A stretch of 64,000 nucleotides of DNA, taken from NCBI RefSeq assembly GCF_044324785.1, contig NZ_CP172127.1. One strand, written 5' to 3'. Position numbers and translations under genes: made by a program. Below the pieces are notes generated by a model. The model was not told where the DNA came from. It ran no database searches and saw only the letters and a list, made by a program, of their open reading frames with translations. This stretch comes from Escherichia coli. GTDB taxonomy: Bacteria > Pseudomonadota > Gammaproteobacteria > Enterobacterales > Enterobacteriaceae. Numbering within the stretch: position 1 is the first letter of the stretch; each line of letters starts with the position of its first letter. Shown here piece by piece: positions 2,879 through 13,526 of the stretch.

Positions 2879-4384
2879 ATGAGCACTAATTTTTTACACG
2901 GTATTCGCACGCTCGAATACGACGACGGCACAAAAGAGATTAGCACGGTAGATATTTCAGTTATCGGGATTGTTGGTACTGCACCGGATTCCGCGCAATC
3001 AACCAGTTCCGAGTTAATAACAGGGAGTGCTATTTTAAAAAACCGCCTGAAATTCACGGCGACGGGACAGGGGGTGAACGGCAATTCATGGAGCGTAGAG
3101 ATTCTCGAAACCGATCCGGACGGCTGCACGGCACTGTGGAGTGATATGCCCGACGGGAGTCGACGTTTATCAATATCAGTCGCACCGGCATCCGGCTCGC
3201 ACGGATACACCCCAGCAGAAATCGTGCAGGCAGTCACAATAGCAAACCCGCCTCCGGACCAATTATTTTTAACAATTACGGCAGTAGATGTCGAGGAGGA
3301 CGCGGGAAATGTGACTGCCTCACCGTTGCAATATTTAAGCGGCGGCAGTGATGAGGCGTTCCCAATTAATACCCCCGTACTTGTTGCCGGGAGTCCAAAA
3401 AAATCCGCTTTACTGGGTGAGCGCGGCACGTTGCCGAAAGATATTGCCGATATTTTCAATCAGGACAACGCCTTGCTTGTTGTTGTACGAGTAAAAGATG
3501 ACAAAGACACAACAAAACAACAGCAAAATATTATCGACGGTGTCAAGCAGCTGGAAAAATCGAAACAGTTAACCGAAGTCACACCGCGTATTATTATTGC
3601 ACCAGATTTTAGCGCAATTGATGCGATAGCCGCTCAGCTTGAGGTGGCCGCAAATAAACTCCGGGGGGTGTGTTATATAGACTCTCCGCGCGCTGCTACC
3701 CCTGCAGACGTTGTGAATCGCCGGCAAAAACTCGGCGGACGTGCTGAGTTGTTGCGTCCCCGTGTTTATTCAACTAGCGACGTCGGGGGGCAATCAAGAC
3801 CGTATTCTGCCATCGCTGCTGGTTTACGAGCCAGAATTGATAATGAAAAAGGGTTTTGGTGGAGTAAGTCGAATCAAAATATTTATGGAATAACAGGGCT
3901 TGAGCAGGTTGATGATTTCATTATTGGCGAGACAAACTGCACAGCGAACCTGCTGAACGCTAGTCAGGTCAGCACCATCATTCGCTATGACGGATTCCGA
4001 CATTGGGGTAACTATCTGTGCAGCCTGGATCCGCAATGGTCGTTTGAATGCGTTCGTCGAACAGCTGACGTAATTGAGGATTCTATAGCCCGGGCAATGA
4101 TGACCGATTTTATTGATCGCCCGATAGACCTGCATCTCGGAACAGACGTTGTCGAGTCGATAAACGCGTATCTGCATAAATTAGAGGAGCAGGGTGCGAT
4201 TAACGGAGGGCGTGCGTGGTTAGACGGTGAGCTGAATACAAAAGAAAGTCTGGCCGCTGGCAATCTTTATATTAATGTTGATTTTGGTCCGAAATCTCCG
4301 GCACAAACAATTACGTTAATGTACCGCATTAATAATGACTATACAGTTGAAGCACTAGCCTCACTTTTTAAAGAAACAGCCTGA
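2879..4384 (+). CDS. Contractile tail sheath protein (gpFI-like)
   Basis: 501 aa; the N-terminal region (HGIRTLEYDDGTKEISTV...IGIVGTA) and later ...RYDGFRHWGN... resemble the P2 FI sheath family. Confidence 0.85.
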   Translation: MSTNFLHGIRTLEYDDGTKEISTVDISVIGIVGTAPDSAQSTSSELITGSAILKNRLKFTATGQGVNGNSWSVEILETDPDGCTALWSDMPDGSRRLSISVAPASGSHGYTPAEIVQAVTIANPPPDQLFLTITAVDVEEDAGNVTASPLQYLSGGSDEAFPINTPVLVAGSPKKSALLGERGTLPKDIADIFNQDNALLVVVRVKDDKDTTKQQQNIIDGVKQLEKSKQLTEVTPRIIIAPDFSAIDAIAAQLEVAANKLRGVCYIDSPRAATPADVVNRRQKLGGRAELLRPRVYSTSDVGGQSRPYSAIAAGLRARIDNEKGFWWSKSNQNIYGITGLEQVDDFIIGETNCTANLLNASQVSTIIRYDGFRHWGNYLCSLDPQWSFECVRRTADVIEDSIARAMMTDFIDRPIDLHLGTDVVESINAYLHKLEEQGAINGGRAWLDGELNTKESLAAGNLYINVDFGPKSPAQTITLMYRINNDYTVEALASLFKETA

Positions 4385-4401
4385 TAATTCGGAGAGTAAA
4401 T

Positions 4402-4914
4402 ATGTCAGACAGCAACGCTTACCGCGCGTTTGCGCTATTCGTGCAGGGCGAACGGGTTTTAAATTGTACTGAATATACTCCTGTCGATATGAAAATAATC
4501 GAGGACGAGTTTAAAACAGGCGCGATGGATACAGCTATCACATTAGATGGCGGTATGGAGAAAATGTCAGCCAGTTTTAAAGTTTCGGGTTCTGATTCTG
4601 GTGTTATGAGCTATTTCGGGTTAATACCGGGAGTCAAGACGCGGTTTGAAATTCGTAGTGCGTACACAGACTCCTATGGAATAAATTTTGAGCGTATTGA
4701 TACCTACGAGGGACTTATTACGGCAATCACTGATGACGCTCAGGGGACTGATTCAAAATCGTCAGTGGGGCAATCAGTAACGATTGCGCCGAGCTATTAT
4801 AAACGAGTTCAAAATGGACGAATTATTTACGAAATTCATCCTGCAAAAATGAAACGCGTTATCAACGGTGTTGATGTTCTTGCGGGCGTCGCTCGAATCC
4901 TTCATGTATATTAA
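4402..4914 (+). CDS. Tail tube protein (gpFII-like)
   Basis: 170 aa immediately after the sheath gene; size and position match FII. Confidence 0.8.
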   Translation: MSDSNAYRAFALFVQGERVLNCTEYTPVDMKIIEDEFKTGAMDTAITLDGGMEKMSASFKVSGSDSGVMSYFGLIPGVKTRFEIRSAYTDSYGINFERIDTYEGLITAITDDAQGTDSKSSVGQSVTIAPSYYKRVQNGRIIYEIHPAKMKRVINGVDVLAGVARILHVY

Positions 4915-8821: not shown

Positions 8822-10648
8822 ATGGCAATAATATCGGGTGTATACGCAAATGGGGTCGGCGAGCCCGTTGTCGGCGTTCAGTTAGTATTAACAGCACGGG
8901 TCACGAGTTCACGCGTAGTAATGACCACTGTTGTAGAGCAAGAAACAGGCGCGGCGGGTGAGTACAAATTTGATATGAAGCCCGGAGTTTACGTTGTCAC
9001 TGCTAGTGCGGCATATCTCGGCGTGATTAACGTTAACCCGGACAGTGTTGACGGCACGTTAAACGACTATTTGACTAATTTTAGCGCAGACGAACTGACG
9101 CCAGCTGCGTTGGCGGAGATCCAGGAACTCGTTGCCACAGCACAAGCCGCTGCCAGTGTTGCCAGCGCCGCCGCAACGGAGGCCAGGCAGAATGCCGCCG
9201 CCGCCGCTGCTGCTGCGCAGATTTCGACGGCAGCGGCAGGGAGCGCCAGATTTGAGAATTTTGACGAAATTATCAATGTCAATACAACAGCAATGCTGGA
9301 GCTGGAAAAACCGGAGGTGTTAGATCCGGATATTGCAATAACTATCACAGAGACGATTAATTATAACTATATTGGCCCGGTAAACGGATTTTGCGACGTT
9401 ACTAGCCCGCTTGAATATAAAATTCAAATGTACGCCTACACAACAGGCGAATATTTTAACGGCGAAACAAATTTAACAGCGGACGGGAAGTTTTCTTTTA
9501 AACGTTCCTGGGCTGGTGCAAAACAATTCAGATTGGTGCGCGTAGCAGATAGTAAATGGATCACTACGCTGGAATACCCGCTGTGTATTCGCAGTTACTG
9601 GATGCCCGCTGACGCCGATCCCGAGGTAGTCAGCGTCATGAAAGACCGTTGCTACACATATGATCAGGCGTGCGCGGCGCTGGCTCTCATGGCGCAGAAT
9701 CACGAGGCGGTAGAGCGTTATGTTACGGGTCTGTGCGCCCTGGTGGGTGAAAACGGCGGCATTAAATTTTTTGTTAACCGGCTGTCCGCACAGTCCTCCC
9801 GCGAATATTACCGCACGGGTAACGCGGCGTGGGTGTTGTACGCCCTGGCATTCTATCTGAGCAAATACCCTACCGGCAGTAACGCTGAGTTAGCGCGCGC
9901 GAAATTAAACGCCGGGCTAACCTGGCTGGACGGTCTGAAGGTTGACGCCAGCGGCGACCCGCGCCACGGCTTATACATGGGCGGCAACGGTAAATATCTG
10001 GAGGACGGATCATTTGATCCGAATTATGTTGCGACCTGGTGCGCGCTCGAGCACAACGTTGATATTTATTTTTTATTCGAACTCGTTGGACGGTTAACCG
10101 ATTTTACCGGATACGAACTGCGAGCCACCACGCTGGCTGCAAATATCGTGGAAAAATTCTGGATTGAGAGCGAGGGGCGATTCCGGCAGGGCGTGCACAT
10201 TGACGGCCCGGACAACGCCGCAGCGCTGGATCAATCGAGTTGGGGCGGGATATTCGCAGTAAAAGCCGCGCCGGAGTTGGCGGAAAAATGCCGCCGTTAT
10301 ATGGAAAGATTCCGGTTCGGCACACTGGAGAGCACCGGTTATACACCGTATCACCCGGACTACGGATACAGCGGCCATAGCCGTGGCGTGTGGACCGAGG
10401 GTACAGCGGGTGTAGCACTATTCGAACGTGCGCTAGGGAACGAGCAGAGAGCTACCGATCTGATCGCGGGATTAAAACCACTGCGTAATGAATACGGCTA
10501 TCGCGACTCATGCGACGATAAAAAATACGACACACTGCCGGACTGGCCGTCGACTACAAACACCGCTTGGGTTATTTTAACATGCAAGCCGGCGGGGTTT
10601 TGGTGCGTAGATTTCCCGGTATTGGACGTTGGTATCGTCAGGTACTGA
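8822..10648 (+). CDS. Side-tail-fiber-like protein: lambda Stf-like N-terminal domain, Ala-rich linker, and an unassigned ~400-aa C-terminal domain
   Basis: N-terminus MAIISGVYANGVGEPVVGVQLVLTARV...GEYKFDMKPGVYVV...GTLNDYL parallels the lambda Stf N-terminus. An AAAAAAAAQISTAAAG stretch follows, then a Trp/Tyr-rich globular region with no transmembrane or signal sequence. Confidence 0.6.
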   Translation: MAIISGVYANGVGEPVVGVQLVLTARVTSSRVVMTTVVEQETGAAGEYKFDMKPGVYVVTASAAYLGVINVNPDSVDGTLNDYLTNFSADELTPAALAEIQELVATAQAAASVASAAATEARQNAAAAAAAAQISTAAAGSARFENFDEIINVNTTAMLELEKPEVLDPDIAITITETINYNYIGPVNGFCDVTSPLEYKIQMYAYTTGEYFNGETNLTADGKFSFKRSWAGAKQFRLVRVADSKWITTLEYPLCIRSYWMPADADPEVVSVMKDRCYTYDQACAALALMAQNHEAVERYVTGLCALVGENGGIKFFVNRLSAQSSREYYRTGNAAWVLYALAFYLSKYPTGSNAELARAKLNAGLTWLDGLKVDASGDPRHGLYMGGNGKYLEDGSFDPNYVATWCALEHNVDIYFLFELVGRLTDFTGYELRATTLAANIVEKFWIESEGRFRQGVHIDGPDNAAALDQSSWGGIFAVKAAPELAEKCRRYMERFRFGTLESTGYTPYHPDYGYSGHSRGVWTEGTAGVALFERALGNEQRATDLIAGLKPLRNEYGYRDSCDDKKYDTLPDWPSTTNTAWVILTCKPAGFWCVDFPVLDVGIVRY

Positions 10649-10676: not shown

Positions 10677-11096
10677 ATGGTCGTTAAAAATATTCTTGCC
10701 TTTGGGATTATGTGTGCGCTTGCTGGTTGTGCAACCAAGCCAGTCTCAAACGAGCAGGCTACTCCCGTTCCAGAAAAACAGGTAATCAATAGCGCAATAC
10801 TCGAAAAAAGAGATGGGACAGGAGAGGTGATCATCAAGCGTGATTCGGGTTTCTTTGGGAGCGCGTGCTTTTCCCGTGTTTATGTTGATGGTAAAGAGGT
10901 GGCAGATTTAGGTACAGCTCAGAAAGTCGTTGTATACCCAACGATTGGTGATCATGTCTTCAGCGCGTGGCCAAAAGGAGTATGTGGTGGTGGCATGAGT
11001 GAGCAGGCGGGCAAGGTGACAACAGATCGTACTTTGATGTATCGCATAGGTTACGGTTCAAACGGTGAATATGGCATTCACCCAACTGCGTTTTAA
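10677..11096 (+). CDS. Small predicted outer-membrane lipoprotein (prophage cargo)
   Basis: GGAG about 10 nt upstream of the ATG at 10677. Signal peptide MVVKNILAFGIMCALAGC with lipobox LAGC; the residue after Cys is Ala (not an Asp inner-membrane retention signal); several Cys in the mature part. Confidence 0.55.
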   Translation: MVVKNILAFGIMCALAGCATKPVSNEQATPVPEKQVINSAILEKRDGTGEVIIKRDSGFFGSACFSRVYVDGKEVADLGTAQKVVVYPTIGDHVFSAWPKGVCGGGMSEQAGKVTTDRTLMYRIGYGSNGEYGIHPTAF

Positions 11097-11253
11097 CTGT
11101 GTTGGGTATGCGATTTTATTCGCATACCCCTTAGGGCAATTGACGATACTTCCAAATGACCATTATTTTACGTGTGGCCTCGATGTTGCGCACATGAGAG
11201 TTCTATATTCTTTCAAACAGGATTATCCCATTGATTTAATTATACTTTCGTAT

Positions 11254-11314
11254 GGTCTCGAAAACCGGAGTAGGGGCAACTCTACCGGGGGTTCAAATCC
11301 CCCTCTCTCCGCCA
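11254..11314 (+). repeat. Partial 3' copy (61 nt) of tRNA-Ser(CGA), serU-like; putative prophage attR
   Basis: GGTCTCGAAAACCGGAGTAGGGGCAACTCTACCGGGGGTTCAAATCCCCCTCTCTCCGCCA matches the anticodon-stem-to-CCA part of E. coli serU as I remember it. The upstream sequence does not match the tRNA 5' half. Confidence 0.8.
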
Positions 11315-11860
11315 CTTTATCAATGACTTATCTCCCGACTTCCCGCCTTGCTTTTCCTAAACAGAACAATCGTAGAATATTCTTGAAGGGTTAGATCGTC
11401 ACTGTTTTCTGTTCGATACTGTGACATTCAGCACTTGATTCGCTATGGATCTGACAGGAAGGTTTCGAGCGAAAATCTGCAGTTATTCAGTCGTTTTCTT
11501 ATCGCTCACCATTATTCTTTTAGACATTCATCCTATGAAACTGCCGCAAAGTTGGTGGTGGGAACTGAAGTTGCGTAGAGAAGGGGGCAATAATTGAGCC
11601 AAAAAAGGAACGCGGCCGTCAGATTAAAGCCGCGGGACAAAGTCCATAATTTCCAAGAGTTGTTGAATTTCCCAGCTTTTTTGAAAGCCTTTGTATCATA
11701 CTAACAAGTAAAAAAGGTTTAAATACCAAAATTAACCTATATTTCTGGTTAGCTTTACCATGACAGATGACTTGCTTCTGGAGACATTGGCGCTGCCAGT
11801 CTGTATTGGTGAGTTGTGTATTTATTGTTCGCCGCTTTCTCGGTTTTTTTCTACAGACAT

Positions 11861-11894
11861 AATAAAAAAGACACGTCTCAAGCATGAGCGTGTC
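11861..11894 (-). terminator. Rho-independent terminator downstream of zinT
   Basis: Hairpin GACACGTCTCA-AGCA-TGAGCGTGTC, followed on the minus strand by a T-run. Confidence 0.6.
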
Positions 11895-11983
11895 TGAGTT
11901 TGTTTTATTTATTTGTCTTGGTAAATTATTGTCGTTACTACCAGGCACTGTTCTGTTAAATAATTGAAGTCAGCGCAAAAAAA

Positions 11984-12634
11984 TCAATGAGACATCATCT
12001 CCTCGACCACTTCTTCGCTACTCAACTGATAGGGATAATACGTTGGCCAGTTTTCCATTTCATTTAATAAAGATTGCTGTGAATCATTACCCATAAAAAT
12101 GTGAAAATGAGATGATTTTCGTGGTGCAATTATATGATCGCTAAATTGAATATATTTAGGGGCTTTGCTTTCAGGATCTTTACATTCGAATAAGTAACGA
12201 ACGCCTTTCTTGCCTGATTTATAGGTGAGTATTTTGTATCCATCATAATCATATTTACAGGATGTTGTTTCATTATTTCTATGGAATTCAACAATGCCGT
12301 CCTCAATGCCAATCATCTCGATATCTGTCACATAACCTTTGCGATAATAATCTTTAATTTCAGCAAATGTTTTAGTTTTATCTGCATCCGCTTTCTTCTG
12401 AAAGACGGGGTCAAGTTTGCCACTTTGCAGTAAAGGATAAACGGATTGCCAGACTCCATCCCAGTCACTGAGCGTTCGGTTTTGTACATTGGCATCATCA
12501 AAAACACCATTAGCAGCTTTTTGTTCGACCTCTGTTAAGGGTTTGCCGTGTGAGTGATGACCATGCGAAAAGGCAGGAGCGCTAACAATAAAGACACCTA
12601 AAGCAACAGCCAGTTTATGAAGACGAATCGCCAA
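11984..12634 (-). CDS. zinT: Zinc/cadmium-binding periplasmic protein ZinT (YodA)
   Basis: 216 aa with signal peptide and His-rich HGHHSHG motif; recognised as E. coli ZinT. Confidence 0.9.
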
Positions 12635-12668
12635 AACAGTTTCCTCCAGAGTTAATGTATATGATGTG

Positions 12669-12689
12669 TAATGTTATATTGTAACATAT
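12669..12689. promoter_or_regulatory. Candidate Zur box upstream of zinT
   Basis: Near-palindrome TAATGTTATATTGTAACATAT about 35 bp upstream of the zinT start codon. Confidence 0.55.
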
Positions 12690-12812
12690 AACAAAATGCA
12701 ACAACTCTTAGGAGACAAGAGAATAGTTATCTCAGGTGTGCTTATCTATCTTATTGAAATAAAATAAATTATGTCGATGATTTGAGGTTGATGACAAACG
12801 AAACATAACTTG

Positions 12813-12860
12813 ATGTGATCTGCGTAGGCCGGATAGGGCGCTCGCGCCGCATCCGGCAGG
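12813..12860. repeat. REP (repetitive extragenic palindromic) element
   Basis: GCGTAGGCCGGATAGGGCGCTCGCGCCGCATCCGGCAGG is the typical E. coli REP consensus type. Confidence 0.7.
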
Positions 12861-12890
12861 GATAACGCGTACTTTGTCGGCAATATGAAG

Positions 12891-13526
12891 TTATACAGAT
12901 AATTTGTTGTGAACCTGCTTGCGTAACCGGTTAAAAAGGGAACGCAACTTCTTATACCGTAAGGCTAAAAGCAGTACAGCCAGCCCAGCGTAGATGAGTG
13001 GCTGCGGTGAAATAATCTTCACTGACCACAGATAATGTACTGGGGCAAGGATCGCGACAAGATAGACGAAGTTATGCAACTGTTGCCAGTTTTTGCCGAG
13101 TTTTCGCTGCATCGCCTGGGTTGAAGTGAACGCTAAAGCAAGCAAAATTATCCAGCTGATAATACCTAACGTTAAATAAGGCCGGGTAATTAACTCCTTG
13201 CCTAATAACGCCAGATTATTCACGCCCAGCTCCAGTAATGCGTAACTGGTTAAATGCAGTGTCGCCCAGGCAAAGCACCATAAGCCTAACAGGCGGCGAG
13301 TGCGTATCAATAACGGCTGTTTTGCGTAGCGTGCCAGAGGTGTGATTAACAAGGTCGCCAGCAAAAATTTCAGTGCAGTGCGACCAGTAAAATGCTGAAT
13401 ATCTTTCACCGGATCGGCACCCAATCCACCGTGATTAATCGCCCAGACCAGCCAGAGAAACGGCAACAATCCGGCAAGATGCAGGCAAACTTTCAGCCAT
13501 GTCACCTGTTTTGCTGTCAGACGCAT
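12891..13526 (-). CDS. msrQ: Methionine sulfoxide reductase heme-binding subunit MsrQ (YedZ)
   Basis: 211-aa polytopic membrane protein directly downstream of msrP; recognised. Confidence 0.9.

Follow-up and report, generated by a model that had tools for sequence, protein, structure and literature searches.

The tRNA gene serU is a documented insertion site of prophages, and its usual right-hand neighbour is yodB (PMC9729726, PMC8190617). In Sakai Sp14, the Stx1d prophage of O121:H7 and the SerU-LTIIb prophage, the 3' end of tRNA-Ser(CGA) serves as the att core and the tail genes lie on the zinT side. The Escherichia coli locus analysed here, which belongs to a stretch of 64,000 nucleotides of contig NZ_CP172127.1 (hereafter the window), resembles these prophages in both respects. 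A preliminary description of the window found no yodB between the att fragment and zinT, and suggested that the ~670 bp at this place may be a deletion or rearrangement scar of the integration, or may carry a small RNA. Here we propose that the segment is the normal non-coding serU-zinT spacer of a yodB-less form of the locus, that the prophage left its flank unaltered, and that the yodB cassette found in other strains is most likely a later horizontal arrival. We estimate the probability of this combined reading at about 0.88.

The segment adjoins the right end of a prophage

The segment comprises 668 bp (11316-11983) between a 3' fragment of serU (11254-11315) and the zinT stop codon (11984). 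The features of the region, from left to right, are as follows.

8822-10648, tail-fibre gene of the prophage (PHROG match)
10677-11096, phage lipoprotein gene (PHROG match), followed by ~160 bp of phage DNA up to the serU fragment
11254-11315, plus strand, last 62 nt of the tRNA-Ser(CGA) gene serU, copy of the att core at the right end of the prophage (homology to WG5 and K-12 starts at 11254)
11316-11761, serU-proximal spacer of 446 bp, non-coding, common to essentially all E. coli
11762-11983, 222 bp specific to the yodB-less form, zinT 3' region (delimited by the break points 11761/11762 and the zinT stop)
11984-12634, minus strand, zinT (metal-binding protein ZinT), the right-hand neighbour (ORF of 216 aa, annotated as zinT in homologous loci)

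To the right of the segment the gene order is zinT, then msrQ and msrP. The 62-nt copy of the serU 3' end has the tail-fibre and lipoprotein genes on its left and host DNA collinear with strain WG5 on its right, as befits the attR of a prophage. At the corresponding place serU is annotated in two homologous loci and in the K-12 genome (NC_000913.3). No intact serU or tRNA-Ser was detected in the window by ARAGORN; therefore the fragment would be the displaced original 3' end of serU, and the other end of the prophage should lie outside the window.

The tail-fibre and lipoprotein region of the resident prophage found only partial matches of ~89% identity and no close relative among deposited phages. 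The 24 bp of phage DNA that end at the att core (11230-11253) also occur in the serU prophage of O157:H7 (Sp14 type, with tccP and espJ), at 47648-47671 of the locus compared. The resident prophage seems to belong to a poorly represented type, one that shares its att site with the O157:H7 serU prophage. On the far side of zinT, between its upstream region and msrQ, positions 12827-12892 gave sub-threshold matches to naRNA4 on both strands (35.8 bits against a gathering score of 59.5). This stretch, similar to a REP-derived family, is most likely an ordinary REP element.

The flank is collinear with that of prophage-free strains

The prophage-free strain WG5 (NZ_CP024090.1) has the order mtfA-serU-668 bp-zinT, with serU intact and no mobile element at it, and strain 20KM2762 shows the same arrangement, likewise with no element at serU. 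Alignment of WG5 against window positions 11254-12700 (1,447 bp) revealed an identity of 98.4% with zero indels. The two loci differ in what precedes the segment: in WG5 an intact serU lies directly upstream of it, whereas in the window this place is taken by the prophage end with only the last 62 nt of serU. The segment itself is 99.0% identical to WG5 and 96.4% identical to Nissle 1917, with no annotated feature there.

At positions 101-1321 of the locus examined, a derivative of Nissle 1917 has a tyrosine integrase gene on the left of the 668-bp segment, at a distance of ~180 bp, and the direct repeat there comprises just ~15 nt of the tRNA 3' end, indicating that a genomic island occupies serU in that B2 strain. 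O157:H7 carries a prophage in serU and still has yodB. The presence of a prophage and the absence of yodB are therefore independent of each other.

No gene is apparent in the segment

A tblastn search with K-12 YodB against the entire window revealed no YodB-like coding sequence, within the segment or outside it (best E = 0.28), in agreement with the preliminary description, which had found no b561-like ORF here and no ORF with a plausible start. The ORFs of the segment gave no match to PF01292 (cytochrome b561), and none is an ORF of ~176 aa resembling YodB, CybB or YceJ. When the K-12 cassette was compared with the window by sensitive blastn, no remnant of yodB appeared; the only similarity was 28 nt of a terminator hairpin. 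All eight ORFs of at least 30 aa in the segment were without a match to a Pfam or NCBIfam family, and translation across alleles showed that most of them are interrupted by stops or frameshifts in other E. coli. One ORF alone, at 11320-11427 on the minus strand, is uninterrupted in all alleles tested; it lacks its ATG in E. albertii, where 12 of its 35 residues are changed.

Searches for RNA gave a similar picture. No match to the Rfam 15 covariance models at E up to 1 was centred in 11316-11983; the two matches that touch the segment (11260-11311 and 11264-11395) are both sub-threshold and overlap the tRNA fragment. A consensus scan found promoter-like sites at chance level (3 against 4.2 expected). 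The RefSeq annotation has no feature beneath the segment in any genome among the matches listed. The sequence gives no sign of a protein-coding gene or of a known RNA in the segment.

Two forms of the spacer occur in E. coli

The preliminary description had given the K-12 gene order as zinT-yodB-serU, which is right: NC_000913.3 reads msrP-msrQ-zinT-yodB-serU-mtfA-asnT-yeeJ. The flanks of the K-12 MG1655 locus (2,042,026-2,043,467), msrP-msrQ-zinT on one side and serU-mtfA on the other, are the same as those of the window. Alignment of the two loci yielded two matching blocks, with identities of 97.6% over 11254-11761 and 98.3% from the zinT stop codon on. The interval between these blocks measures 222 bp in the window and 995 bp in K-12, where it is made up of a spacer of 342 bp, yodB and a tail of 122 bp. 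Besides yodB, the K-12 cassette holds the yodB promoter region and a diverged zinT 3' region. The 222 bp and the 995 bp do not align, apart from a distant similarity: about 170 nt of the K-12 zinT-yodB spacer, including the terminator hairpin, are distantly homologous to the 222 bp of the window (z = 5.4). The two forms thus differ by more than a clean insertion or deletion. Six substitutions are clustered near the left break point, at 11739-11754, in K-12 and O157, whereas zinT shows no comparable cluster and has two form-specific substitutions in its last 50 bp.

Among 5,426 complete genomes of E. coli, 5,420 had a match to the serU-proximal 446 bp (11316-11761) and 2,281 to the whole 668 bp. 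The 222-bp form (11762-11983) is found in 2,304 genomes (42%) with identities of 90-99.5%, 1,890 of them below 95%, and the K-12-type 995-bp yodB cassette in 3,114 genomes (57%), nearly all of them (3,104) at 95% or more. The two forms are mutually exclusive within E. coli. Because they add up to 5,418 of the 5,426 genomes, the locus behaves as one with two alleles, and genomes without yodB here appear to have no yodB elsewhere. The polymorphism is already evident in thousands of public genomes; a literature search returned no paper on the serU-yodB spacer or on whether strains have or lack yodB.

One exceptional arrangement was observed in E. coli FDAARGOS_1373, in which the segment is reduced to its first 206 bp, at 3001-3206 of the locus examined, joined straight to fliP, with genes for an integrase, an HNH endonuclease and an AAA ATPase on the other side of the spacer. 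It is a large deletion or rearrangement beside a serU-associated element.

The yodB-less form is probably ancestral

The locus of E. albertii consists of zinT, 564 bp, serU and mtfA, without yodB, and its spacer is collinear with that of the window. Homology between E. albertii and the window continues for 34 bp beyond the K-12 break point. Aligned to E. albertii, the 222 bp of the window gave a z score of 17.9, against 4.9 for the K-12 zinT-yodB spacer. E. albertii serves here as the one outgroup; the contig scan with ZinT returned two non-coli Escherichia loci, and among all the loci returned there was none of E. fergusonii, E. marmotae, E. ruysiae or the species representative of E. coli.

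YodB of E. coli forms a single cluster at 99% identity, and its next relatives, from Citrobacter, Hafnia and Salmonella, are 72-77% identical. Based on the collinearity with E. albertii, the greater diversity of the 222-bp form compared with the cassette, the tight YodB cluster and the gap in YodB identity, the 222-bp yodB-less form is probably the ancestral one.

Two of these relatives, the closest to YodB outside E. coli (~76%), are encoded in Citrobacter-type prophages by single, oppositely oriented genes with a lysis cassette on one side and HNH and terminase genes on the other. These genes lie at 4001-4540 or 1440-1979 of loci L090-L093, which come from a Citrobacter portucalensis chromosome and metagenome contigs. 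Nucleotide homology of these prophage genes with K-12 yodB reaches 88 bp upstream of the start codon. Deposited phage genomes contained no close YodB homologue. The yodB cassette most likely replaced the older form by horizontal transfer from a distant source, and the location of the YodB relatives inside prophages, together with the shared 88 bp upstream, makes it plausible that K-12 yodB originated as a phage cargo gene.

Terminator hairpins of the spacer

Two terminator-like hairpins were found on the minus strand.

11857-11895, minus strand, predicted intrinsic terminator of zinT (hairpin 11869-11895, U-tract 11857-11868)
11601-11636, minus strand, second terminator-like hairpin (fold of 11601-11750 and sequence)

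The preliminary description had placed a zinT terminator at the right end of the segment, and the first of these hairpins bears it out. It starts 88 nt past the zinT stop, and has a stem of 7 + 4 bp with one bulge, followed by UUUUUUAUUAU. Its fold has a z score of -3.6, and its sequence has the features of an intrinsic (Rho-independent) terminator. A simple consensus scanner missed it, probably owing to the bulged stem. In E. albertii the stem is kept, with one compensatory change of an A-T to a G-C pair, and in the K-12 allele the outer stem is kept. E. coli has two SNPs within the hairpin, at 11876 and 11883, which affect its bulge and its loop. As an A-run precedes the hairpin and a T-rich run follows it on the plus strand, the terminator is potentially bidirectional.

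The second hairpin has a stem of 7 bp, rich in G+C, and a loop of 10 nt, with UUCCUUUUUU following it. It lies within the shared 446 bp and hence in both alleles, in a stretch that E. albertii does not have. In K-12 it is located ~250 nt downstream of yodB.

At the other end of the gene, the palindrome-like TGTAATGTTATATTGTAACATATAAC was noticed at about 12668-12692, just upstream of zinT. We take it to be a candidate for the Zur operator expected for the zinc-regulated zinT, which it resembles.

A putative relic of an older integration beside serU

In the block of 130 bp that directly follows serU (11316-11445), identity to E. albertii is 83%, as compared with 34-57% in the remaining spacer; the corresponding values for zinT and mtfA are 89% and 79%. 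A deletion variant of the spacer was observed in Escherichia sp. MOD1-EC7003, in which 11461-11975 (~515 bp) are deleted and the equivalent of 11301-11460 is kept (its positions 4649-4816). The retained block starts 9 bp past the zinT stop, and no intact serU or mtfA is present within 4 kb.

IMG/VR was scanned for the serU 3' end, which yielded numerous loci of the attL type. In these, an integrase gene lies on the strand opposite to the tRNA, at a distance of 52-114 bp. One of these loci, L178, has mtfA, an intact serU, 84 bp and a gene for an integrase of 342 aa, and part of the conserved block resembles it.

11354-11434, minus strand, putative remnant of a serU-integrating element, tRNA-proximal end (likeness to L178)

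Comparison of L178 with this stretch of the window revealed ~78% identity over 80 nt (z = 16 against shuffles; z = 15 for E. albertii), and the offset of the relic from the tRNA end and its orientation match those of L178. The peptide VLNVTVSNRKQ of the putative relic, followed by a stop, would correspond to the end of the L178 integrase, VLNVTVSDSKK, with 8 of 11 codons matching and the stop at the same place. In addition, L178 has three repeats of the GTAGAAYA type, which are putative arm-type sites of the integrase, and the window has degenerate counterparts of them (CAGAACA, GTAGAATA and CTTGAAGG) at the same positions. No nucleotide similarity to L178 was found past +120, and a profile of 36 C-termini of serU integrases scored at most 4 bits on the translated frames of the segment. 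The adjoining 11435-11761 was also considered as a decayed integrase gene, and this was rejected: neither the profile HMM of the integrase C-terminus nor nucleotide alignment to L178 was significant.

The presence of the relic in nearly all E. coli and in E. albertii implies that it long predates the resident prophage. The stretch 11354-11434 would be a true but ancient integration scar, unrelated to the resident prophage.

The serU flank in lambda-like phages

The part of the segment next to serU also occurs in phages.

11316-11592, probable captured host fragment, 277 bp beyond serU (phages ev099, mEp332 and PhiR70_1)

All three phages carry window positions 11254-11592 (339 bp, that is, the 62 nt of the serU 3' end and these 277 bp) at ~97% identity. 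The fragment lies at 3439-3777 of the ev099 locus and 3440-3777 of the mEp332 locus, between tfa and an AraC-type gene in the b region. Three records of 35-64 kb deposited as plasmids carry the same 62 nt and 277-bp flank, also at ~97% identity. The fragment was considered as the active attP of ev099 and mEp332, in which case the chromosomal copy would belong to an att site of 339 bp, and this was rejected: 97 E. coli genomes have the tfa, serU-flank and AraC-type arrangement unbroken, and the APEC O78 prophage with the fragment adjoins ybhB-bioA. This flank is, by our own identification, presumably the lambda attachment site in the gal-bio interval. The phage-borne fragment looks like a piece of the host chromosome picked up when a prophage excised imprecisely from serU, and would be a fossil right-end junction.

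Alternative explanations

The suggestion of the preliminary description that the segment is a deletion or rearrangement scar would mean that integration or imprecise excision of the resident prophage deleted yodB and rearranged the flank. That published serU insertions usually have yodB as the right neighbour (PMC9729726, PMC8190617), and that the segment directly adjoins the att fragment, speak for it. We nevertheless regard it as very improbable, as the same 668 bp lie between an intact serU and zinT in WG5 and 20KM2762. The allele occurs without an indel in strains with an intact, element-free serU and in 2,304 genomes in all, O157:H7 keeps yodB despite its serU prophage, and 446 bp separate the att core from the break points at 11761/11762 and the zinT stop. 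A scar does exist in a remoter sense: the ~80 bp beside serU resemble the end of an intact serU-integrating element, and long predate the resident prophage. The preliminary description had also allowed that the segment might be ordinary conserved intergenic DNA, with yodB simply elsewhere; the first part stands and the second does not, since yodB is apparently absent from these genomes altogether. Alternatively, yodB could be ancestral in Escherichia, with the 222-bp form as an old deletion derivative that was spread by recombination, including into E. albertii. A homologous terminator hairpin is present in both forms at a similar distance from the zinT stop, and the spacer is deletion-prone, as seen in MOD1-EC7003 (without 11461-11975) and FDAARGOS_1373 (206 bp joined to fliP). 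However, the 222 bp hold no trace of yodB or its flanks, and the zinT-proximal parts of the two forms are only ~55-60% alike, whereas a simple deletion would leave flanks with ~98% identity. E. albertii is also much more similar to the window allele than to the K-12 allele, the cassette is less diverse than the 222-bp form, and YodB has no intermediate relatives in Escherichia, its nearest being prophage cargo genes. We consider an ancestral yodB unlikely, though not negligibly so.

The small RNA of the preliminary description was not borne out, as no Rfam match was obtained at E up to 1; a broader version is that a functional RNA or cis element without annotation is encoded in the segment, above all in the ~130 bp that follow serU. 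This could be a 3' trailer of serU, a Rho-dependent termination region, a small RNA or an aid to the capture of serU-targeting elements, and even taken together we think these options quite unlikely. The identity of the first 130 bp to E. albertii (83% against 34-57% elsewhere in the spacer) and the retention of 11301-11460 in MOD1-EC7003 fit such a function. In addition, the plus strand of this block is pyrimidine-rich and less structured than shuffles (z = +2.4), which would suit a Rho loading region. On the other hand, the block has no Rfam match and no significant fold on either strand, promoter-like sites do not exceed chance (3 against 4.2 expected), and the only ORF open throughout (11320-11427, minus strand) loses its ATG and a third of its 35 residues (12) change in E. 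albertii. The relic of an integrative element accounts well for the conserved block. Still, the 83% identity is left unexplained by a neutral spacer, and an undetected function could lie behind it. The contrast in E. albertii identity and the sparing of the block in the deletion variant are the grounds for a reading in which the relic block (~80-130 bp) is kept by selection; separately, the two spacer forms may be a long-lived polymorphism seeded by a phage cargo gene. We give this combination a low chance. A selected block after serU may serve as an extended landing pad that helps phages and islands targeting serU to be captured or stabilised, or it may be a 3' trailer of serU or an element of Rho termination.

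Comparison with known systems

We return to the normal spacer of a yodB-less form and propose the following history for the locus. The prophage would have inserted into the 3' end of serU and left the DNA to the right of 11254 as it is in prophage-free strains. Beyond the shared 446 bp, an E. coli chromosome would continue with either the 222 bp of the window or the 995-bp yodB cassette of K-12, of which the 222-bp form is probably ancestral and the cassette probably acquired horizontally, possibly from a phage cargo gene. The segment would supply the 3' UTR of zinT with its predicted intrinsic terminator, together with the second terminator-like hairpin on the minus strand, and would hold, beside the tRNA, the decaying leftovers of an old serU-integrating element.

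The missing yodB is thus a host allele and not prophage damage, which removes a false lead. With 42% of complete E. coli genomes lacking it, yodB is unsuited as a fixed right-hand landmark for serU insertions. The gene is accessory, probably of horizontal origin, and not one of the core paralogues of cytochrome b561. The relic beside serU and the 339-bp phage-borne flank are small examples of how tRNA-adjacent DNA records the traffic of mobile elements. The result is otherwise an ordinary one, with little weight for biology in general.

The published serU prophages named above have yodB as the right neighbour, whereas the window has zinT, owing to the host allele. The direct repeat of the island in Nissle 1917 (~15 nt) is much shorter than the 62 nt of the window. 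Similar to the lambdoid-prophage cargo genes known as morons, YodB relatives sit in prophages, and this likeness belongs to the yodB of the K-12 allele and not to the window. The putative relic resembles the decayed attL remnants found beside tRNA genes, in which a tRNA-proximal arm and the 3' end of an integrase gene remain, and it differs from them in that only ~80 nt are recognisable and that it is shared by nearly all E. coli and E. albertii instead of being strain-specific.
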